This document shows positions 1 to 12,261 of a DNA stretch of 64,000 nucleotides, piece after piece. Position 1 is the first letter of the stretch, and each line of letters starts with the position of its first letter. The DNA lies in the NCBI GenBank assembly GCA_963665115.1, contig OY762007.1:2272001-2336000 (forward strand), in the 5' to 3' direction. The stretch is from an uncultured Rivularia sp. (GTDB lineage: Bacteria; Cyanobacteriota; Cyanobacteriia; Cyanobacteriales; Nostocaceae). The notes beneath the pieces are model-generated. The model was not told the DNA's origin. It searched no databases and saw only the letters and a program-made list of their open reading frames with translations. The position numbers were made by a program, and so were the translations under genes.

Positions 1-523
1 GTTGTTTGCTGGGTTTGCGAAAAATCCCAGGATGCACTGAAGCGGTATGAGGAACATCAATAAAATTTTCTGCACAGTTAGTGACGTTATTACGAAAGCG
101 ATTGATAACTTTTACAGTTTCCCATCCCGGCTGTTGGTACTCAGGCATTTTGAAAGGTGCAAATTCCTCCAAAGGTGACGATAAGCGCACGTAAACGAAA
201 CCATCTTCTTCTTTAGTTTGATAAAGTTGGTTTTTTCGCATTTTGCTTGAACAAAAATTCTCTCCTTCCGAAGGTACGGTAACAACCTTGCCGGTATCAT
301 CGTAAACCCAACCGTGGTAAGGACATTCGAGCTTGCCCTGACAAACTTTACCTTTTGATAAACGGGTATTTCTGTGAATGCACCTATCTTGTAAAGCAAC
401 AGGTTTACCATCTTCCCCACGGAAAACTGCCAGCCATTCACCTAAAATTGTTCGTGAAAGGACTTGATTTGGTTTTAATTGGTTGCTCAAAGCGACAACA
501 TACCAAAAATCTTCAAGTTTCAT
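1..523 (-). CDS. Rieske non-heme iron oxygenase alpha subunit (5' part; runs off the window edge; not in the ORF track)
   Basis: Manual translation from the ATG at 523 gives MKLEDFWYVVALS...DRCIHRN...LECPYHGW...ENFIDVPHTASVHPG, with Rieske CxH...CxxH and mononuclear-iron DxxHxxxxH motifs and no stop before position 1. Confidence 0.9.
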   Translation of the reverse strand, partial: MKLEDFWYVVALSNQLKPNQVLSRTILGEWLAVFRGEDGKPVALQDRCIHRNTRLSKGKVCQGKLECPYHGWVYDDTGKVVTVPSEGENFCSSKMRKNQLYQTKEEDGFVYVRLSSPLEEFAPFKMPEYQQPGWETVKVINRFRNNVTNCAENFIDVPHTASVHPGIFRKPSKQ

Positions 524-609
524 AATGTTGTTAGTGGATAGTTGTTAGTTGATTGAAATACCTGGCGAATGTAATTCACTGCTACACAGGCAAAGTCCAC
601 CTGCGTGGA

Positions 610-897
610 CTATTTTATTGTTGTAATTTGAATATTATTAGTTAACTGAATTTGACAAGCTAATCTTGCCTTTGGATTTTCTGGATCTAGTACTTCTAAA
701 AGTTCTATTTCCTCTTCCGATGCAGGTGGAATATCTCCTTCTACAGCTACAATACAAGTGCCACAAATTCCAGTACGACAACCGAAAAGTATCGGTGAGT
801 TTTCTACAGTTAAATGTTCGGCAAGGTTTTGATTTATTTCTAATTCAATCGGTTGATAATTTGTTTCTGGAAATTGAATAATACATTTTTTAGTCAT
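610..897 (-). CDS. 2Fe-2S ferredoxin
   Basis: CRTGICGTC...RLACQ motif, 95 aa. Confidence 0.9.
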   Translation of the reverse strand: MTKKCIIQFPETNYQPIELEINQNLAEHLTVENSPILFGCRTGICGTCIVAVEGDIPPASEEEIELLEVLDPENPKARLACQIQLTNNIQITTIK

Positions 898-1027
898 ATT
901 TATAAGTTATTTACTATTAACTATTCCTAATACTCTTTAAGACGACTTATCTCTCTTAATTTCTTTCCTCTGCGTCTCTGCGTCTAGTAAGGTTTATTAT
1001 CTTATAATGCCTCTACAAATCAATAAT

Positions 1028-2062
1028 TTATTTTTTATTTGACCATATTGAAGGTTGAAGTCGATTTACATAGCTCATATATTTAACCAACGGCTCATCA
1101 ATAGTTAAAAGAGCATTTGGATTATAACGAATATTGTCATAAATCATTCCATCTTCACCACGTAAGAAATAGTAAGCTAGTTTCGTCATAAATAACAAAA
1201 ATCTACTTATCAACCAACCAATAATTCCTTTTCTTTTTTTAGTTATATAAATAGGCTGAATTCTAGTTTTTCTACCTTCTAAAGGTGTATAGGCATAAAT
1301 CATATGCAAAGAAGGTATAAATCGCACTTTTTTCATGATAGTTAGCAATCCTATACAGCCATCGGCGTATCTCATGGTGTATTCGTAATCATCGCCGAGT
1401 ATTCTTTTAGCAATTTTCTCTCTAGATGTAGTTTGTGGAAACTTACCACTAAGGGTAAAATCAATGATATTTCCAGATTTATTTTCCTCTAGCGATAAAT
1501 CCATTTTGATATTTAGTTTATGTACGGTTTGAAGATGTTGAGCATCAATTCCGTTCATCATACAAATATGATGATGACAATTGCGTTCAAATGCTTTGTC
1601 GTATGATGTAACAAGAGATTTATTTTTTAATTCACCAAACTCTGCAATCTCTGGTGCTTTTTCCTCTGGATAAACCCAAATAAAACCATATTTTTCGTCA
1701 GTAGCATAAGATTGCAACTTGGCTTTTTGAGGAATATTTGATTGACAGGGAATATCTTGACATTTACCTTCACCATCAAATGCCCAATGATGGAAGAAAC
1801 AGCGAATTAAATTACCATCGACTTTCCCAATTGCTAAATCGGTTCCTAAATGGGGACAGTAAGCATCTAATGCCCTAACTTCATTATCTTTACCGCGAAA
1901 AATCACTATTTTCTGTCCGCAAATAGTAAAAGATTTGGCTTTGCCTTGGGATATGTCTTTACTCAGACAAACTATATACCAACCTTTAGTAACAACGTCC
2001 CAATTATTAAATACTTCCATCTTTATTAATGGTTGGGTATTTTTGTTTTGTAATGAGTTCAT
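1028..2062 (-). CDS. Rieske non-heme iron oxygenase alpha subunit
   Basis: YCPHLG...RCFFHHW Rieske motif and NGIDAQHLQTVH iron motif. Confidence 0.9.
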   Translation of the reverse strand: MNSLQNKNTQPLIKMEVFNNWDVVTKGWYIVCLSKDISQGKAKSFTICGQKIVIFRGKDNEVRALDAYCPHLGTDLAIGKVDGNLIRCFFHHWAFDGEGKCQDIPCQSNIPQKAKLQSYATDEKYGFIWVYPEEKAPEIAEFGELKNKSLVTSYDKAFERNCHHHICMMNGIDAQHLQTVHKLNIKMDLSLEENKSGNIIDFTLSGKFPQTTSREKIAKRILGDDYEYTMRYADGCIGLLTIMKKVRFIPSLHMIYAYTPLEGRKTRIQPIYITKKRKGIIGWLISRFLLFMTKLAYYFLRGEDGMIYDNIRYNPNALLTIDEPLVKYMSYVNRLQPSIWSNKK

Positions 2063-2077
2063 GTAATTAATTGACTC

Positions 2078-2254
2078 TTATTGATTTTTAGCATCAAGAA
2101 TAAACAGAATTGATCCGATAGTAAATAATATTCCTCCGCAGACAGAAGAAATAGAATAAAAGGATATCTCTTTAAATAAATCGATAAAAGAATTGTTCGT
2201 AAATAGAAGAGAACCAATTAGAAACAAATAACTTCCTAATAACGTATAGCTCAT
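2078..2254 (-). CDS. small two-helix membrane protein, 58 aa (below the ORF-track cutoff)
   Basis: MSYTLLGSYLFLIGSLLFTNNSFIDLFKEISFYSISSVCGGILFTIGSILFILDAKNQ; fills the gap between cluster genes, starting 2 nt after the upstream stop. Confidence 0.65.
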   Translation of the reverse strand: MSYTLLGSYLFLIGSLLFTNNSFIDLFKEISFYSISSVCGGILFTIGSILFILDAKNQ

Positions 2255-2256
2255 AA

Positions 2257-3420
2257 TTAATCGTGTTGATTATTAATTACCCATTTTTTAAAAGCTTTTC
2301 TTTGCCGATTCAAATATCGAGAAGTAGAATTTTCAGCCATCAAAGACATTTCACGGTTGCTTTTCCATAGATAATCCAGAGATTGCAGATAAACTTTATA
2401 GGATTCCATCGCTTCATGATGAGTTTGAAAGCTGTTGTGTAACGCTTCCGTCTCTTCAGTAAAACAACGACGCATCATATCTTTCGCATCTGCATCGCTC
2501 ATCCCGAAAATGCGCGATCGCAATACTTTGTAAATCGCTGAATACAGTGCAGCATCGTACCAAAATATCCCGTTGACTGCCACAGAACAATGATAATGGT
2601 CTTTTTGACAGCCGCGTACTCCTAAGTTTGCAACCAGTTTCTCAAAGTCGGTAGGAGGTTTGATGCAGTTAATTACATCGTGGGAAATTATAGTTGAACT
2701 ATTAAAATGAAAGCTTTCATCCATAAAATGATAGTAGGAAATTTTTGCGGGGATGGGTGCATCTTCCGGATTAAGATGTTTTTGATAATAATTGCTGAGC
2801 TTATGTTGAACTAACTTACCGTTAAGAGTACGCACGCCCCTAACTGTAAAATACTGACAAGCAAGAAATGTATTATCTGCGGATATTAATCCAAAAGCTT
2901 GTAGCTGAAGTTTTTTCCATTGTTGCTTGAGCAAGTTGGTATCAGTAAACACCATAGTTTCTGTATAAGGGCCGCGCATTGGGTAGCTGAAAATACGTTC
3001 TTCAAACAGCTTTAATTCGACTTCTTTAGAGATGGTTTTGAAAGCATTAATATGGGCGCGTTCCTGTGAAGATTCCAAATCGAGCATATCGCAGATCGAA
3101 CGAAAATCCTCTTGAGCATACAATCCAGCAGCGCTAGTTTGGTTAAAAAAGATAGTCGCAATTTCAGCAGAAATGATTTGAGAATAGTAAGCTACCCAGT
3201 AAAGTTGATTGAGAATAATTCTTTGACTTGGACTTGATTCTAACCATAAAGGCGTACCAAAAAGTAACGAGAACTCTTCTGGATTCCAGTATTCATTTTT
3301 GCAATCATCATACTTAAAATCAGTCGCAGCTTGATCTAATAATTCCGTACAATCTTGCTGTTTATTACGTTTATAGTTAATTTGCAACTTACGGCAGACT
3401 TGTTGATTTTCTAAAAGCAT
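2257..3420 (-). CDS. CylC/AurF-like dimetal-carboxylate enzyme (putative halogenase or oxygenase)
   Basis: YWNPEEFSLLFGTPLW...LNQLYW, SAEIAT, LESSQERAH and HFMDESFH; two ExxH motifs and an N-terminal pattern recalled from the CylC family. Confidence 0.7.
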   Translation of the reverse strand: MLLENQQVCRKLQINYKRNKQQDCTELLDQAATDFKYDDCKNEYWNPEEFSLLFGTPLWLESSPSQRIILNQLYWVAYYSQIISAEIATIFFNQTSAAGLYAQEDFRSICDMLDLESSQERAHINAFKTISKEVELKLFEERIFSYPMRGPYTETMVFTDTNLLKQQWKKLQLQAFGLISADNTFLACQYFTVRGVRTLNGKLVQHKLSNYYQKHLNPEDAPIPAKISYYHFMDESFHFNSSTIISHDVINCIKPPTDFEKLVANLGVRGCQKDHYHCSVAVNGIFWYDAALYSAIYKVLRSRIFGMSDADAKDMMRRCFTEETEALHNSFQTHHEAMESYKVYLQSLDYLWKSNREMSLMAENSTSRYLNRQRKAFKKWVINNQHD

Positions 3421-3522
3421 TTTCAATTATCAATTATCAGTTATCAATTAAGCTGATGTGCAGCTAAACTCTATAAAACGTTAGCGTTCACCGAAGGTGC
3501 GGCTCAGCGTGTCCGAAGGACA

Positions 3523-3629
3523 TACAGCATATTTAGTTTTGGTGAAGTACATTCTGACGGGCAGGGATGCCCATCCCACAAGACTTTCGGAATATAGTTT
3601 TGTACCTCATTTAGCTGCAAAGGGCTGTA
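3523..3629. mobile_element. 107-bp MITE-like element, copy 1
   Basis: Ends TACAGC...GCTGTA; same length as the copy at 49590-49696 and shares an identical 28-bp core with it. Confidence 0.65.
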
Positions 3630-3732
3630 AATCTAAAATTATTGTAGTGCGGGCATCTTGCCCGCCAGAAAAATACAAATAAAATGCACGACACCCTACT
3701 TACAAATTTGAGAATATTTTTCTACTCTCTTT

Positions 3733-4638
3733 CTAAAAAACACATTGACTGGGTTTTAAAGCTTGAAAACTTCCCTTAATATCCAGATTTTCAAGTATAT
3801 TTTTAGCATTGGGTAAATCAATCAAATTGCGTAACAATTTCAAGCGACTTCCACTATGATTTTCAGTATCAAGTTGTGCAAAAATATTAATTTTATCTTC
3901 TTTTGATAAATGTCCTTTGACTTGTTCAATTGCTTTAACAACACTTTGAGGCCCCAGTTGCACCATTTGTAAAAACATTGCTAATATTTCCACAATATAT
4001 TGACTAGATTTACTTAGCGATATATTCTCAAACAGCGTTACTCCGGTAGCGTGATGTCGGCTTTCATCTTGCAAAAAACCTTGCAATATCGATTTTAATT
4101 GAGGATTTTGACAATATGAAGCAATACTGCGGTAATGAGTTAAACCCCACCCTTCTAAAACGACTTGCAGCACAAATAATAAAACTGTTTTATCATCGCT
4201 TTCTACCACCTTTTCCAGCAAATCTAAAAATGGGTTGTTGCTTACTTCCGGAGTCGGTAAAAAACTACTAATTTGTGCAAAATGGGTTACTTCATCCGCA
4301 GCAAATAAACCATAAAGCATTCTTTCCTCAGTGGTTTCTGCTAGCAAAATCATTTTCGCCATATAGCCCATGCCAGCTTTTTCGATAAAATAAGCTTCCT
4401 CCAAAATTCCTAAATTGCAAAGTTGTAAAATAGAACTTTGTTCCCCAGGTGTGGAATCTTTAAAAATTTTGACTTTATCGAGATTAAAATAATTAGCATT
4501 CCAGTAATTAACTAAAGTAGATCTATTTTCATAATATCTATTTGTTTTTTCAAGTGCTGAAGATAGAATTCGATTTAATTTATCTTTTGAATTAATATCA
4601 GGTAAATCTAATCCAGCAATAGTATATTGTCGATCCAT
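3733..4638 (-). CDS. ferritin-like diiron protein
   Basis: FIEKAG...ADEVTH...VLEGWG...QDESRHH, an E/ExxH/E/ExxH ligand pattern. Confidence 0.8.
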   Translation of the reverse strand: MDRQYTIAGLDLPDINSKDKLNRILSSALEKTNRYYENRSTLVNYWNANYFNLDKVKIFKDSTPGEQSSILQLCNLGILEEAYFIEKAGMGYMAKMILLAETTEERMLYGLFAADEVTHFAQISSFLPTPEVSNNPFLDLLEKVVESDDKTVLLFVLQVVLEGWGLTHYRSIASYCQNPQLKSILQGFLQDESRHHATGVTLFENISLSKSSQYIVEILAMFLQMVQLGPQSVVKAIEQVKGHLSKEDKINIFAQLDTENHSGSRLKLLRNLIDLPNAKNILENLDIKGSFQALKPSQCVF

Positions 4639-4695
4639 GATTTTATATTTTAAGCTACTAACTAAGAGTTGAATATCTGAAAATTTATTAAAAGG

Positions 4696-4754
4696 GTTTG
4701 TAGTAGCGCTTCAGCGCCTCCGGATTCATGAGGCGCTGAAGCGCTACTACGAAC
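4696..4754. repeat. palindromic dispersed repeat (GTTTGTAGT...ACTACRAAC family)
   Basis: 25-bp arms, 24/25 complementary, 9-nt loop; related copies near 5278-5302, 10536-10592, 28501-28549 and 52331. Confidence 0.8.
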
Positions 4755-4895
4755 TTTAATTATTCATGACTTATAAAGTGGAGCTGGCAAAAGTTCAAGT
4801 TTATTTAAGCTTATTAAAAATGATAAAAACGTAAATTGAAACCTACTAATATAAACATTAAAGTAAATAAAATATTCTATTCTTAACTTTCCTTC

Positions 4896-5153
4896 TTACT
4901 CTTGCGATTTTAAACAGCTGGGAATAACCATAGGATGAGATTCTTTTTCAAAGCTACGATCTTTCGGTAAAACCATAGGATGAGAATTCTCTTCAGTTTT
5001 GTTATTCGCGAATTTTTTTCCCGGTATAAGCATCTCCGAGTCCTCATGAGGGCAGATTTCGGCTTTTTTCTGAGAATTTGCACCGCAAGCAGCAAAAATA
5101 ATTACTATCAGGGAGTTGAAAAGGATTGAACGAACTGTAAGGGCTTTTTTCAC
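4896..5153 (-). CDS. small putative lipoprotein with a repeated SHPMV(L/I)P motif
   Basis: From the GTG at 5153: MKK, a hydrophobic stretch, then FAA|C lipobox-like site; exact 15-bp DNA repeat at 4926-4940 and 4971-4985. Confidence 0.55.
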   Translation of the reverse strand: MKKALTVRSILFNSLIVIIFAACGANSQKKAEICPHEDSEMLIPGKKFANNKTEENSHPMVLPKDRSFEKESHPMVIPSCLKSQE

Positions 5154-5306
5154 GATCGAATATTTGATTAATATATTTCTTGTAATTATTGTTGTTTGGT
5201 TAACCTTCAATCTAGTTGTTTCAATTTTTGTAACGCTTTAGTACTCCACCACATTAAATCTCCAAATTCCGTAAAGTGAGGCGCTAAAGCGCTACTACAA
5301 ACCTAA

Positions 5307-6401
5307 TTAATCATTCGCTTCTCCTTTTGATTCCACCATCTCTGCTTTTTTTTGTCTTTGTCTTTCTTGTTCCTCGTTTATGGGTTCCCAACTTTCCCAA
5401 CGTAAGGCTTTTTGTGTTTCTACATTTTGGATAAATTGCAAAATGGCATTATCTGCTTTAGTTGGTGTTTGAAAGTCGAAGTTGATTGTTTGAAATATCT
5501 GAGTATCTCCGGAAGCAAAGTAGTTACCCACCAACTTTGTCAGCAAAAGTACCGCTCTGTTGAACAACCAACCGAAAACACCCCGACGCTTTTTAGTTAT
5601 TAGAATGGTTTGTCCCTCTGCTTTCCCGCCTTCAAGCAAACGCAAAGCAAACATAATATGAAAATGTAGAAAATCGGGTCCTAAAGTTACTGTGCCAATA
5701 CTTCCATACCAATAACACATATTATAAGTAACGGCTTTTTTGTAAAAAGGGCGGATTAATTTCATCAGAAACGAATCTTCGCCACCCCTAGTAATGTTGT
5801 TAAAAATAATCGCATTATCATTGAGTTGCTGCTTGCGAAAAACAATCTCTAAGGGTAGATTGTGAACCGTATTAAAATGATGAGCATCGATAGCATTAAT
5901 CATCACCACGTTGGGATGACAGTTTTTCACAAACTCAGAAGTTACAAGACTATCACATTCATAATTTTCTAATTCTGGAACAAACGGTAAGGGTTGAGCA
6001 TGAGTTTCACCCACCCAAACCCATATCATGCCGTATTTTTCGGCAACGTGCCAGGTTTTCAACTGCAACGGAAGACTCGTTCCCAAACAAGGAACATCAA
6101 CGCAATTACCTTGACTATCAAACTTCCAATTATGAAATAAACAACGCAATCCCTTACCTTCAACTTTACCTTCGGCAAGGTGAGCGCCCATATGAGGACA
6201 CTTAGCGTCAAAGCAAACTAGTTCACCATCAATATTCCGGTAAATTGCTAACTCTTTACCCAGTAACGAAACCGCTTTGACTTGTCCTTTTCGCAACTTT
6301 TTGGCAGGAATAGCCCAATACCAACCTTCAATAAACCGCCTTGGATGGTTAAATATTTGCGTGTAACGATATGAACTAATAGTATTTGGTACGGCTTTCA
6401 T
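5307..6401 (-). CDS. Rieske non-heme iron oxygenase alpha subunit
   Basis: KCPHMG...RCLFHNW and NAIDAHHFNTVH; paralog of 1028-2062. Confidence 0.9.
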   Translation of the reverse strand: MKAVPNTISSYRYTQIFNHPRRFIEGWYWAIPAKKLRKGQVKAVSLLGKELAIYRNIDGELVCFDAKCPHMGAHLAEGKVEGKGLRCLFHNWKFDSQGNCVDVPCLGTSLPLQLKTWHVAEKYGMIWVWVGETHAQPLPFVPELENYECDSLVTSEFVKNCHPNVVMINAIDAHHFNTVHNLPLEIVFRKQQLNDNAIIFNNITRGGEDSFLMKLIRPFYKKAVTYNMCYWYGSIGTVTLGPDFLHFHIMFALRLLEGGKAEGQTILITKKRRGVFGWLFNRAVLLLTKLVGNYFASGDTQIFQTINFDFQTPTKADNAILQFIQNVETQKALRWESWEPINEEQERQRQKKAEMVESKGEAND

Positions 6402-6572
6402 GTCATTTTCATTACCGGAAGTTCCGGGTTTTAAATAAGTTGTATTTAAAAGCGTTATATCAAGGATGAGTAATTTTTAGTGTGTTGAAAGCATCACCTC
6501 GAAACTATTCAACGCCCTCTATTTCAACCCGACCGCATTTTTAGTTTTAAAGCGAACTTTGAAACAGGACTT

Positions 6573-7325
6573 TTAAACCGGAATTTTAAAGTCGGAATTT
6601 TTATCTTCGCTCTTACAATTTGTATTTGCAAACCACATTCTACGTCCGGCACGAGTCAAATTTTCCTCGCAAATCTCCGTAAAACAAACTAATTCATCAC
6701 CATTAAGATGCCCTGGGTTGAGCGTCTGGAAAAACTGAATATGCGGATCTCGCAATCTTTGAACGGGTATACCGTGCAAGCCATCTCGGAGTTTGTGGGG
6801 ATGGGGAAAACGAACCACACCAGTTTTAATATTATAATTTTCGCCAAAACGTTTGACAGATAAATCTTGCATCAAATTCAAAATACGTTCGGGGGTTACG
6901 GAGTCGTAGCAGGGATAAAACTCTTTCCAAAATAAGGGTAAAAAACGATAGGTGCGATAACCACCAGAAATTAATAGCCAGTAGAGTTTTCCTTTACAGT
7001 ATTCCCGGCGTAATTTATTTATCGAAGCTATCCAGCCCGTAGATAGAGCCGAACTTGACCAAGCGGTAGGATCTACAATAGTATCTCCAGAAAATACAAT
7101 GCTAATATTTTCACCTTCAAAATAGGTGTCGTACATTAGTAATGTAGAAAAACCTTTTAATTGATTTGTTTCTTCATCTTTAATTAAGATTACCCAATTT
7201 TTACTATCCAAATCGTTGTTGAATACGTCTCTCTTAACTCCTTCAAAGTGATTCGTTAAAAGCGCAAACATTTCTTCTACATCCAAAGCCGACAAATCGC
7301 TGGTGCTAATTAAATTACTATTCAT
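6573..7325 (-). CDS. conserved hypothetical protein, possible GNAT-fold acyltransferase
   Basis: Long ORF with LKGFST, FSGDTIVD and LLISGGYRTYRFLP motifs; the fold assignment is inference. Confidence 0.5.
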   Translation of the reverse strand: MNSNLISTSDLSALDVEEMFALLTNHFEGVKRDVFNNDLDSKNWVILIKDEETNQLKGFSTLLMYDTYFEGENISIVFSGDTIVDPTAWSSSALSTGWIASINKLRREYCKGKLYWLLISGGYRTYRFLPLFWKEFYPCYDSVTPERILNLMQDLSVKRFGENYNIKTGVVRFPHPHKLRDGLHGIPVQRLRDPHIQFFQTLNPGHLNGDELVCFTEICEENLTRAGRRMWFANTNCKSEDKNSDFKIPV

Positions 7326-8741
7326 TTTTATCAATATTTTCTATTTACTTATTATCAACTATAGTTTTTTATTCTAGAAAGTTATTAAATGTATGTGTCA
7401 GATAGTTATCTGTCCAGGGTATTTTCACAGAAAAATATATCTATAAATAAATCCTAATAGATTGATATGCATAGCTTTGAGATTGTGAACTATCTCTTTT
7501 ACAAAAAATATCCCGCTCAATTAATAATATGAATTATTGTAAACTACTAAAAACTTCATCCCGCTTCATGTCGATTCAGCTATGTTCAATTAATATCTTA
7601 GTGATTGTTATATCTTCTAAGCAAAATGATAAATAATAGTAGACTATCTGACTAGAAATTGATGTTGAGAATATAAAAAAAATATCTAAATTTTAGTGGT
7701 TTGAGTATTCTTTAATAGTAATAATGGCAAAATATACTTTAGATAGGATATTTATTTCATTTGCTGTAGTGCAAGCATTTTGCTCGCGACTCCATATAAA
7801 TAAGGAGTTATTTATTTCCTCCCCATAAATATTAGTGTAAAAACCTTATGCTTCCGGTAATAGAAGCGCGATCGCCATGCTATTACTTTCAATATAGAAT
7901 AATTTATCTAGCAAGCCGGTGTTATCTTTATTTTCTTATTTTTTTATACTTCATTGTAGTTACCTACTCCGTATTTCGTTAAAAATATTGAGTCTTTATC
8001 AAAAAAACTAGCTCCCATGAAGTGAAAAGCTAATTTTTACAGACTCTACAGTCGAGCTAATCCCTGATATAGGGCATATTTACCAGATATATGTTCGATT
8101 CCATGTAAAATGCGCTACAATAATTCCAGCTTTGGCTGACGACATAATTTTAGTGCATCTACATTTAAAGTCAGGGTTGCATCTTCAAACTCAATTTTTT
8201 TTCTACGTAATGGCATCTTAAGATTACTGTTGCTACTTCTCTACAAGATAGCTGAGCAACTAATTTTACTGTTTTATAACAATTTGATTCTCTTTGAGAA
8301 AGATTTCAGCAAATTTCTCAGCAATAATTGTGATTTTGATATAAAAACCCTCAAAATGGGCAAACTAAACTGAAAAAATAATTAAATATTTTTGCACTTT
8401 TTGCTTGGATAGAATATCAAGTAATTTTGGATTTACGATTTTAAATTTTAAATTATCTCTGAAAGTATTGCCATAGCTGAAGTTACAGGCATATTTTTTG
8501 AATTATTTAAAGCTAAAAATCTAAAATCTGTTATGGCTGACATAAAAACTTGATTTTGGGGGAGCATCTCAATTTTTTTAACATATTGTAGTGGGAGCGT
8601 CTCGCTCCCTCGTAGTAAATAGCGAGCTCGTACTACTAATTTAAATCCGTAGGGATGCTCCCAATTTTGGGGTTAGCTCTATCTATCTAAATTAAAGCTG
8701 CTTTGTTTAATTATTCTAATCCAGGGAAAAATCTACATATT

Positions 8742-10503
8742 ATGTACGACTTAACTAAATTTACTCTTAGGGATATGTCAGAGTGCGGTTTAGCGCTACG
8801 ACAAATTGCAGAAAAATCTGATTGCATGGAAGATGCTAGTAATTTAATTATCAAATATTTTTACGAAAATTTTATTAATAAAGATACTGGAGAAAAATCT
8901 TGCATTCTTGTACGCTTTTTTAAAACTCATACCTACGAGAAACTAACTCCCGAATTACAAGAATTTGCACGGGATATATTAGCTCAAAACAAGGTTGCCG
9001 ATGATTTAAAATGTTTGACTTTACTATCTACTGCGGGTGAACTTCCAGAATGGAATTCTCGCTATAAATCAACAGCACACAAAGCAATACCACTTGCAAG
9101 TGAAGATTCTATACATCGCATACCAATGATTTCGCAATTGATTAGACAAATGGGTTTAAATCCTGGAACACTATTACAAACCGATGCCGATTTATTAATT
9201 GATAGCGAACAGAAGATGTATAACGTATTTTATGTTCCTAATGCTTTGGGTAGCTCTTATATTCCTTGCCAAACATCTTTCGTAATTCCGTTCGGAGTCA
9301 AATCTGTGATTGGATTTGGTGGATTATTGCCTACTGGCAATATGTTTACGATTTTGATGTTTTTGAGGATAGTAGTTTCCGCAAACAATTGTAGATTTAA
9401 TACGTCCTTTAGCCCTAAATGTTAAAACTGCGATTCTTCCTTTTGATGACGGCAGAATTTTCAAAGAACCTCATCAAGTATCTATTAACGAAGACAATAT
9501 TTTACAGCGCCTAAATTCTAAAGTTGGCACTTTAAATCAGTTACTAAATGTTTCCGAACAATCCACTATTACTCAGTCAGATCGTTTAGAGAAAGCAATT
9601 ATCAACCTTGAGCAAACTTTGAATCAGCTTCAGAAAACTCAAATTCAACTAGTACATAATGAAAAAATGTCTAGTTTAGGTCAGATGGTGGCAGGTGTTG
9701 CTCATGAAATTAATAATCCTGTAAGCTTTATTCATGGAAATCTTAACTACGTAGAGGAATACAGCCAAACTTTACTCAAATTAATCCACTTGTATCAACA
9801 GAAAGATGCCGACGATTTAGAACAAATTCAACAAGAACTTGATTTTGAAGAATTAGATTTTATCAAAGAAGACTTTATCCAAATTATTCGGTCGATGAAG
9901 GTAGGAACTGAACGTATTCAAGAAATTGTTAAATCTCTAAGAATTTTTTCTCGCTTAGACGAAGCAGAAATTAAACGGGTTGATATTCATTTAGGTATCG
10001 ATAGTACTTTGATGATTTTACAAAGTCGTTTAAAAGATCAATCCACTCATTCAAATATTGAAGTAATAAAAGAATATGGCAAATTACCAGAAATAGATTG
10101 CTATCCCGGTCAACTAAATCAAGTATTCATGAATATTATTGCTAATGCGATTGATGCTTTAGAAGAACAAATAGGTAATAGAGGATGGGCAACAGAAGAT
10201 AATAAAAAAGAATGGAACAAAGATATTTTTAAACCTTTTCAAATTCGTATTCGTACTAAAGTTTTAAATGAAAAATGGATATCTGTTAGTATTTCTGATA
10301 ATGGTTTGGGGATGACAGAAGAAGTTAGTTCTAAATTATTCGATCCATTTTTTACAACTAAAGAAGTCGGAAAAGGTACGGGATTGGGATTATCTATCAG
10401 TCATCAAATTGTAGTAGAAAAACATGGCGGACAACTCAAATGTAATTCTGTACTTGGAGAAGGTACGGAATTTGTAATAATGCTTCCGATTAATTCGCTT
10501 TAA
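8742..10503 (+). CDS. sensor histidine kinase with an uncharacterised N-terminal domain; +1 frameshift near 9377
   Basis: H-box VAHEINNP, N-box QVFMNIIANA and G-box GKGTGLGL; removing one T at 9376-9378 joins the two ORFs (span 3n+1). Confidence 0.8.
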
Positions 10504-10605
10504 AGAAAGTGCTGTATGATTTTACTTCACTAGATTCGTAGTAAGGAATTTAGTCTTCAGATTAAGAGAACTGAAGTTCTTACTACAAACCATTATAAAG
10601 CCTTA

Positions 10606-11742
10606 TCAAAGTTTCGTTTTTAGTCTTGCATTAACCGTTGGCGATCGACTTTCCCAAAGACGAACTGTTTTATCGAAACCACCGCTAGCAAGAGTTTTTC
10701 CGTCAGGGCTGAAAGCGAGGGAACTTACCCAGTCTGAATGCCCGTAAAGCGTACTTAATAAACTACCTGTATTCAAATCCCAGATTTTTATCCCGTCTTT
10801 ACCACCGCTAGCTAAAGTTTGTCCGTCTGGATTAACTGCGATCGCAATCACTGAGTTAGTATGCCCGGTGAAGGTTTGCAATACTTCTCCAGAATTGAAA
10901 TTCCACATTTTCACAACGCGATCGCTACTAGCGGTAATCACATTATTTCCATCCGGTGTAAAGGCTATAGCTTTAACTTCCCTCTGATGCGCTTGGAATC
11001 CGCGAATCAACCTTCCACTTTGCAAATCCCACAGTTTCACAATACCTTTATTGTCGCCGCTAATTAATGTTCTACCATCGGGGCTAATTGCTACGGTGTA
11101 AATTAAATTATCAAACTTTGCTAATCTCCCCAAAGGACGTTGTTGCAACAAATCCCATATCCTAATTCCATCTAAAGCACCGCTAACAAGAACTTTACTA
11201 TCTGGAGTCACCGCGATTGAAAGTACGTTACTGCTATGTGCCCTAAAGGAACGGATAAATTTGTAGCTTTCCAAACTCCAAATATTAACGGAGTTATCAG
11301 TACTACAACTGACTAAATGTCTACCATCTGGGGAAATTAACAAAGATTGTATCGATTCTTGATGTGCTTTACGAATCTCACCCAAGCGTTTCTTCTTTTT
11401 CAAATTCCATAAACGAATAATACCATCGTTGTTAGAACCTCCGCTGACAAGCATTCTACCGTCAGGGCTGAAAGTTACAGCTTTAACGGCTCCTTTATGG
11501 CCTTTAAAAGTATGACTTAATTGAGGATTCGTAAAATTATTTGCAGCAGTTGAACCTATAATAACTTGTGCAGTAGCTGGCTCAGTCAATGGTAATTGAG
11601 TAATACCCACAATACCTACTGCTCCCATTAATACCGGCATAAGGTTTTTTGCGACAAATATTTTAGATTTAGAAGCTAAGATCTCAAATACAGAGGAATT
11701 AATAAAGCTGGACTTTATAAAGTTATGATGAAATATTTTCAT
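10606..11742 (-). CDS. WD40-repeat protein with an N-terminal signal/anchor
   Basis: About seven GH...VAFSPDG...IxLWD/N repeats. Confidence 0.9.
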   Translation of the reverse strand: MKIFHHNFIKSSFINSSVFEILASKSKIFVAKNLMPVLMGAVGIVGITQLPLTEPATAQVIIGSTAANNFTNPQLSHTFKGHKGAVKAVTFSPDGRMLVSGGSNNDGIIRLWNLKKKKRLGEIRKAHQESIQSLLISPDGRHLVSCSTDNSVNIWSLESYKFIRSFRAHSSNVLSIAVTPDSKVLVSGALDGIRIWDLLQQRPLGRLAKFDNLIYTVAISPDGRTLISGDNKGIVKLWDLQSGRLIRGFQAHQREVKAIAFTPDGNNVITASSDRVVKMWNFNSGEVLQTFTGHTNSVIAIAVNPDGQTLASGGKDGIKIWDLNTGSLLSTLYGHSDWVSSLAFSPDGKTLASGGFDKTVRLWESRSPTVNARLKTKL

Positions 11743-11961
11743 GGTTTACAAAATAATCTAAGCAAATACCCTTAAAAAGCATAAAAGAGGGTTTCCCCTC
11801 CTCAAAATCTATTTTGCCTTGTACATCAAAGGTTTGCCAATAGACAGTAATTTTCGATAATTGATATTTCTTTCCTAAAAATGTTTGAGACGTTGCATTA
11901 CAACGTCTCTACATTGTTTATGTAGCTTTTTATTCAACTTTTCAACTTCGATCTTTAATGC

Positions 11962-12261
11962 CTACTGTGGTGGTTTCTTCTTAGAGATACTCAACATTGG
12001 CAACGACGAATTAGATGAATGGGGAGGTAAATATAATTGTTTTGCAGGTTCATCCGAATTTTGTAAAGTAGGACTTTGTTTAATCCGCAACCACCTGATA
12101 ATTAAGGCTGTTCCAGCAGTTCCTAAGCCAAAAACAAACAGTGCCCAACTGTCATCGAATCCACCTATGAGTGCATCCACTATTCCCATCGTGATTAATA
12201 TGGTGATTAGCGGTTCTTTACGGTAGGCTGATTTTACAATACGAGGAAATACAGCATTCAT
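11962..12261 (-). CDS. small hypothetical membrane protein
   Basis: Two hydrophobic segments and a basic, Pro-rich tail. Confidence 0.65.
   Translation of the reverse strand: MNAVFPRIVKSAYRKEPLITILITMGIVDALIGGFDDSWALFVFGLGTAGTALIIRWLRIKQSPTLQNSDEPAKQLYLPPHSSNSSLPMLSISKKKPPQ

Follow-up and report, generated by a model that had tools for sequence, protein, structure and literature searches.

What is made by a run of oxygenase genes gathered around a CylC-like diiron enzyme? The window analyzed here, a 64,000-nucleotide stretch of a single-contig 8.69-Mb genome whose closest named homologs are from Rivularia, begins with such a run: nine open reading frames (ORFs), all on the minus strand, within positions 1-7334. 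The first-pass annotation described an orphan, oxygenase-rich cluster of nine co-oriented genes with intact metal motifs. The ORF list and a motif check bear this out for the window, but the unit itself is larger, comprising 12 genes and reaching ∼4 kb beyond the window's left edge, where three more genes lie and a GH3 gene comes last. The whole is an intact further member of a published orphan type, the Rieske-containing biosynthetic gene clusters (BGCs) of CylC homologs (Eusebio et al., 2021, PMC8406957). We give about an even chance to a reading in which its enzymes would assemble an amide-linked lipid with no carrier protein and oxidize it several times afterwards. The chemical steps proposed for it are read from gene content, motifs, folds and co-inheritance.

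A twelve-gene Rieske/CylC cluster

Reading leftward, the core genes in the window encode a GNAT-fold acyltransferase-like protein (6573..7334, 253 amino acids [aa]), Rieske oxygenase A (5307..6401, 364 aa; PF00355 and motifs), a ferritin-like diiron protein (3733..4638, 301 aa; PF13668, Ferritin_2, above cut-off), a CylC-family diiron enzyme (2257..3426, 389 aa; assigned by active-site residues, tree and fold) and Rieske oxygenase C (1..523; PF00355). The last is the third Rieske gene of the annotation; completed from the genome (G000:C1:2271504-2272523), it encodes 339 aa with intact motifs. Rieske oxygenase B (1028..2062, 344 aa; PF00355) and a 2Fe-2S ferredoxin (610..897, 95 aa; PF00111, Fer2) are near-core. 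Left of the window follow three further core genes, encoding a member of the fatty-acid hydroxylase/sterol-desaturase family (L001 18655-19380, 241 aa; PF04116 and histidine motifs), a membrane hexapeptide-repeat acyltransferase (L001 17659-18318, 219 aa; PF00132) and the GH3 adenylating amide synthetase (L001 15952-17571, 539 aa). The cluster spans 11.4 kb. All 12 reading frames are open, with intergenic gaps of 2-336 bp, and the Rieske, ferredoxin, diiron, histidine-box and GH3 motifs are intact and near-invariant (66-98 sequences per gene).

As described in the accessible text of PMC8406957, the Rieske-containing type comprised 36 clusters that have no product and lack carrier proteins, action on fatty-acid derivatives was proposed for them, and in 2021 they were the commonest context of CylC homologs. 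Every stated feature recurs here: a single CylC homolog, which is also the only such match in the source genome; three Rieske proteins, where the published clusters have 2-4; a sterol-desaturase-family gene (PF04116) and an acyltransferase (PF00132); no acyl carrier protein (ACP) or fatty acyl-AMP ligase (FAAL)-type carrier or activating domain; a clade apart from the polyketide synthase (PKS)/resorcinol-type homologs; and a Nostocales-type host. Nothing essential differs, the two small passenger genes described below being additions. GH3 goes unmentioned in the main text of that paper, whose supplementary gene maps may show both GH3 and GNAT. The class of Rieske-rich CylC clusters without an assigned product, which the annotation had named, is a real one. 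We found no product assignment for it in the open literature, a coverage that excludes most subscription journals, and the accessible text of PMC10811679, PMC11264947 and bioRxiv 10.64898/2026.09.06.749771 is silent on this cluster type. What is new here is the genome-level co-occurrence of the genes and their link to wider GH3-GNAT cassettes; the architecture of this copy is not.

A scan of species genomes returned 309 stretches that encode a relative. In the best 80 of these 309, many of which stop at contig ends, matches were found for the CylC-like enzyme in 80, the ferritin-like protein in 76, the ferredoxin and Rieske A in 74 each, GNAT in 72, Rieske C in 69, Rieske B in 66, the hydroxylase in 62, the hexapeptide acyltransferase in 56 and GH3 in 53. 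The occurrence together of these ten core genes, each in 53-80 of the best 80 loci, is far beyond chance, and their order is mostly that of the window's cluster, which is thus syntenic. Culturable strains that have the cluster include Calothrix parasitica NIES-267 and Nostoc foliaceum FACHB-393. Three other neighbors, encoding GT2, SDR and C45 hydrolase proteins, were considered as core genes and rejected (7, 3 and 1 of 100 loci, respectively).

In an even sample of the phylum (301 genomes), the CylC-like enzyme has a match in 37, of which 27 encode a close homolog (54-78% identity) and 10 distant ones only. The 27 divide into 17 genomes of the window's class and 10 of other classes. GNAT, GH3, the ferritin-like protein, the hexapeptide acyltransferase, the hydroxylase, Rieske A and Rieske C are each present in 27/27, and a Rieske B ortholog (≥45% identity) and the ferredoxin in 26/27 each; the hexapeptide, hydroxylase, ferredoxin and three Rieske genes were searched solely in these positive genomes. 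The set is complete even when dispersed, for which G167 and G105 are examples. Across 58 clusters, the pairwise identities of eight genes covary (rho 0.84-0.93, with kin not independent), which shows co-inheritance only. The ferritin-like gene occurs in 30 of the 301 genomes and is solitary in three, where its neighbors are uninformative. In three genomes of one genus (L100, L101 and L113), four cluster genes immediately follow a gene for a fatty-acid desaturase, and the remainder are scattered.

The pathway looks dispensable, because only 27 of the 301 genomes have it and Rieske B is interrupted in G167. There the ortholog (L150 4902-6881) is split by an insert of ∼1 kb with two ORFs that resemble a transposase pair. 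There is no clear sign of recent transfer of the window's cluster, since close homologs are absent from all 72,556 plasmid records (only four matches, at 27-31%) and its GC content is 35.4%, against 37.9% for the genome.

A CylC-family enzyme with an invariant glutamine

The 389-aa protein carries both motifs of the CylC-type halogenases, ExxQExxH (E118-Q121-E122-H125) and HxxDExxH (H233-D236-E237-H240). Nine active-site residues are described for these halogenases, and all nine alanine variants of NocO are without chlorination (accessible text of PMC12101540). The corresponding set here is E88, Q121, E122, H125, Q207, H233, D236, E237 and H240: eight of the nine residues are those of CylC, and the ninth, a glutamate in CylC (E283) and NocO (E252), is Gln207. 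This position was mapped by alignment and by its spacing to the Asp, which is 29 residues here and 30 in NocO and in 11/11 Glu-type proteins. Gln207 is fixed in 34/34 sequences of one set, in 98/98 of an overlapping set and in 196/196 database homologs (50-87% identity). The equivalent residue is Glu in 11/11 others, comprising 9/9 ACP-adjacent and 2/2 resorcinol-type proteins. PMC12101540, in its accessible text, notes Gln at this position in "a small subset" and proposes that the NocO glutamate is a second-sphere residue rather than a metal ligand.

Nine distant homologs taken from sampled genomes are 26-33% identical to the 389-aa protein; an ACP gene adjoins 9/9 of them and a FAAL-type AMP-binding gene 8/9, and two further distant homologs lie in a resorcinol-type context. 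Homology to the ACP-adjacent CylC-type proteins is full-length, and the ferritin-like fold is shared as well. The window's protein is nevertheless shorter (389 versus 452-466 aa), being without the insertions found in them, and it has no FAAL, ACP or PKS gene nearby; the adjacent FAAL/ACP pair that supplies an ACP-tethered acyl chain to the CylC, NocO and BrtJ halogenases is missing. In a quick-search tree of the gene (2257-3426), rooted at the midpoint and containing no named reference sequences, 34 Rieske-context rows stand apart from 11 others with an SH-aLRT value of 100 and on long branches. Residues and tree together assign the protein to the CylC family, not to AurF, and to a clade of its own. 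Pfam family PF28091 is precomputed on all listed homologs.

Halogenation by this enzyme is doubtful, and is weakened as a prediction because the glutamate that NocO requires is Gln in all 196 clade homologs. We favor somewhat the view that it hydroxylates or desaturates over the view that it chlorinates. The amide-lipid scaffold could instead be served by a true carrier-free chlorinase, with the product or a hidden intermediate halogenated, and we regard this as possible although unlikely. The eight identical residues include the QExxH glutamine that separates halogenases from AurF; if the varied glutamate is indeed second-sphere, Gln would leave the site open for chloride; and Eusebio et al. 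(PMC8406957, accessible text) propose action on untethered fatty-acid derivatives. On the other side, the alanine variant at this glutamate is inactive in NocO, long branches separate the clade from the ACP-linked proteins, and the literature, so far as its text is accessible, holds no demonstrated activity for any clade member. Synechocystis sll0266, listed as a CylC homolog in the supplement of PMC12101540, appears only in an expression screen. Its expression falls under iron deprivation (PMC3516471).

The answer matters in either case. Should the Gln clade turn out not to chlorinate, the number of cyanobacterial halogenases annotated from motifs is too high, and the clade offers a natural comparison for the diiron choice of chloride over hydroxide. 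Should the 389-aa enzyme prove to be a chlorinase, it would represent a C-H halogenase that needs no carrier and is valuable for biocatalysis.

A proposed carrier-free amide-lipid pathway

The annotation placed the scaffold genes left of position 1. A GH3 ligase and a desaturase-type gene are indeed there, but no ACP or FAAL gene. The 12-gene cluster encodes no ACP, peptidyl carrier protein (PCP), FAAL, PKS or nonribosomal peptide synthetase, and neither ACP/PCP nor FAAL genes were found within 20 kb leftward of the window or at its positions 1-12000. Since ACP and FAAL are also without a match in 100/100 related loci, the scaffold is probably carrier-free. FAAL and ACP homologs are encoded elsewhere in the source genome, so that supply in trans is possible.

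The GH3 protein has three Pfam domains above cut-off and nucleotide-binding motifs at 95, 319 and 376, and the GH3s of CylC-type genomes form one clade (support 99, FastTree). A precedent for carrier-free chemistry is the bacterial GH3 OlsH, which makes N-acyl-ornithine from a free fatty acid and ATP, without acyl-coenzyme A (PMC12493201 and PMC12971839, accessible text). In the present cluster, GH3 would convert a free carboxylic acid, in all likelihood a fatty acid, to its acyl-AMP and couple this to an amine or amino acid, a reaction type known from OlsH and from the GH3s of plants. The likeness to the OlsH/OlsI ornithine-lipid pathway (PMC12493201) extends to a predicted N-acyl amide product, a partner acyltransferase and a hydroxylase whose best NCBIfam match is OlsE (66.9 bits versus a cut-off of 475). 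The differences are that the cluster has no OlsI-type hydrolase or OlsG methyltransferase, that six oxygenases are added, and that its GH3 is unmatched by the OlsH model; on this comparison it is not an OlsH ortholog.

The GNAT-fold protein and the membrane hexapeptide acyltransferase would then attach further acyl groups. The former is without a Pfam or NCBIfam family match, and its AlphaFold model (pLDDT 91.7) folds as a GNAT (best Z 12.7, 163 chains at Z≥8), in agreement with its annotation as GNAT-like. Its loop at residues ∼86-97, presumably where GNATs bind coenzyme A, is glycine-rich in the most distant members and serine-rich in cyanobacterial ones, so the acyl donor may differ. The hexapeptide protein has two hydrophobic segments and a near-invariant H147.

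In a third step, the three Rieske oxygenases, the two ferritin-like diiron enzymes and the membrane hydroxylase/desaturase would oxidize the chain or the head group. Electrons for these six iron enzymes would come from the cluster ferredoxin (cysteines C40, C45, C48 and C81) and a reductase from the host, since the cluster encodes none. All three Rieske proteins have the CxH..CxxH motif and the DxxH..H mononuclear-iron motif. The 301-aa ferritin-like protein has candidate ligands at E86, E116xxH119, E162 and E192xxH195, and E86, E116, H119, E162, E192, H195 and H196 are invariant in its alignment. The two diiron families are not claimed as paralogs, a profile comparison having given no significant match (probability 0.5%).

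Two accessory genes, encoding Mpo1-like (35/100 loci) and amidohydrolase (32/100) proteins, adjoin Rieske B in many Nostoc-like loci and point to possible amide and hydroxy-fatty-acid handling. For this commonest of CylC-like gene contexts, the proposed pathway would narrow the search to an amide-linked lipid, for which a chlorine signature is an unreliable guide.

Several observations weigh against the amide-lipid pathway. For every gene, the product, substrate and enzyme activity are predictions. GH3 has no match to the OlsH model NF052613 at E≤1e-6 (cut-off 620 bits), and a different GH3 of the source genome reaches 1e-28 against that model. Plant GH3s take aromatic acids too, and a fatty acid is named as substrate here because of the neighboring genes. 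The GNAT fold fits many acetyltransferases about equally (Z 10-12.7), with no standout relative. Alanine alone, not glutamine, was tried at the NocO glutamate, and the 389-aa enzyme still satisfies both published halogenase motifs; a motif-based 2026 pipeline would still label such an enzyme a halogenase (PMC13519999, accessible text). The co-occurrence of six of the ten genes was counted in the 27 positive genomes alone, and related genomes are not independent. Lastly, with the queries used, neither the Mpo1-like gene nor the amidohydrolase gene turned up in the source genome.

Alternatively, the pathway could tailor or degrade something other than a fatty acid, for example an aromatic acid or a sterol- or hopanoid-like ring, with GH3 activating that acid; we consider this improbable. 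The best library matches of the Rieske proteins do include sterol enzymes, namely the SdmA model (E 1e-21 to 1e-24) and the KshA structure, PF04116 covers sterol desaturases, and several solved GH3s accept benzoates or auxin. The SdmA match, though, reaches 87 bits against a cut-off of 600, and the sterol-enzyme matches cover the N-terminal half only; for Rieske A, SxtDIOX/SxtT and KshA are the nearest solved relatives at ∼E 1e-22, SxtDIOX scoring equally. No transporter, ring-cleavage enzyme or reductase is among the recurring neighbors scanned.

The AurF/CmlI arylamine N-oxygenases are the closest solved folds to the CylC-like enzyme. Its structural model (pLDDT 88.8) is nearest CmlI (Z 17.9, root-mean-square deviation [rmsd] 4.0, 279 aligned) and next AurF (Z 17.3, rmsd 4.2, 294 aligned), and the third histidine (H233) is present. 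Such likeness is expected for a CylC relative and does not discriminate, because CylC itself is AurF-like in fold (PMC12101540, accessible text). Identity is only ∼11%, and the equivalents of AurF D135 and E196 are both Gln, these positions being mapped via the CylC alignment in PMC12101540 and not from an aligned AurF sequence. Foldseek gave no match to the model at E≤0.001, and when the CylC-like, GNAT-like and ferritin-like proteins were searched by sequence against the Protein Data Bank, none had a meaningful relative there. Many database homologs of the CylC-like enzyme are labeled AurF, a label that the residue check does not support. That one diiron enzyme is an AurF/CmlI-type N-oxygenase, giving a nitro, nitroso or N-hydroxy product, is very improbable: beyond fold and label it can draw on the AurF-family clusters among the atlas neighbors of the 301-aa protein, yet the AurF Pfam model (PF11583) scores 17.3 bits on 2257-3426, under its 29.6 cut-off, no aryl-amine supply gene is among the recurring neighbors scanned, and the N-oxidation entertained by the annotation is unlikely because QExxH has the CylC-type Gln and the AurF E196 glutamate is missing.

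GH3-GNAT cassettes and neighboring sequence

GNAT and GH3 (at E≤1e-30) are each found in 36 of the 301 genomes, 35 of them shared, and in the remaining GNAT genome, G025, GH3 adjoins GNAT in its locus; they are the most tightly linked gene pair. GNAT loci without a CylC-like gene come from nine genomes and a second locus in G055, making 12 loci in all. Nine of these have a second acetyltransferase-like gene of ∼370 aa and six an RnfD-like/FG-GAP/UnbV-domain fusion; a Rieske C relative is present in five, B12 radical-SAM genes in three and membrane desaturases in two. A Citrobacter plasmid has a GNAT-like gene, GH3, an N-acetyltransferase and four radical-SAM genes; a Burkholderia replicon has a desaturase, both GNATs, GH3 and a Rieske C relative; in an Azospirillum locus GNAT alone was seen. 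We suggest, tentatively and as an idea that is more probably wrong than right, that a single GH3-GNAT amide-lipid chassis spans phyla, with the Rieske/CylC cluster as its oxygen-dependent arm and with membrane desaturases or B12 radical-SAM enzymes at work in the others. On this suggestion, the Gln clade would be non-halogenating, carrier-free diiron C-H oxidases of the kind ancestral to CylC halogenases, and the product an undescribed bacterial lipid class.

The two remaining genes of the cluster are lineage-specific passengers. One is a small lipoprotein-like ORF (4896..5210; 104 aa as called, ∼86-90 aa in relatives) with a hydrophobic stretch and an FAAC motif, found in 17 of the best 80 loci, all close relatives, and frameshifted in L004 and L006. 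The other is a YrhK-like membrane protein of 58 aa (2078..2254), found in 12 of the 80 and matching PF14145 (E 1.9e-8); it is the small membrane ORF described by the annotation. Related palindromic repeats at window positions 4687-4754 and 5277-5311 (arms of 25-34 nt, 88-96% complementary) flank the lipoprotein-like ORF. Promoter and terminator scans gave 65 hits (54.8 ± 7.5 in shuffles) and 13 hits (8.6 ± 3.1), respectively, neither clearly in excess.

The next gene beyond GH3 on the left encodes a Uma2 nuclease. On the other side, a histidine-kinase gene adjoining the cluster (8703-10503, plus strand) is present as two ORFs and is a single ORF of 585-589 aa in L004, L006, L015 and L016; the split reflects either pseudogenization or an error of assembly. 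Two overlapping ORFs likewise make up a gene to the left of the window (L001 4487-7157) that its motifs label as helicase-like. In Nostoc-like loci (L041, L051, L054, L114 and others) the gap between ferredoxin and Rieske C is an insertion hot spot, since it gathers PIN-domain genes and a deaminase plus SMI1/KNR4 pair.

A second lipid-tailoring region (L145, G000:C1:2173000-2192500) lies ∼80-100 kb left of the window. It encodes a GH3 with a weak OlsH match, a JmjC cupin, an OlsC-like hydroxylase, a cyclopropane synthase, a desaturase, a B12 radical-SAM protein, an SdmA-like Rieske protein, a pyridoxal phosphate enzyme resembling BioF and serine palmitoyltransferase, an unassigned protein of 383 aa, an NAD epimerase and a fatty-acid hydroxylase. 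All of these matches are under NCBIfam cut-offs, and the region may be an amino-lipid or sphingolipid-like cassette.

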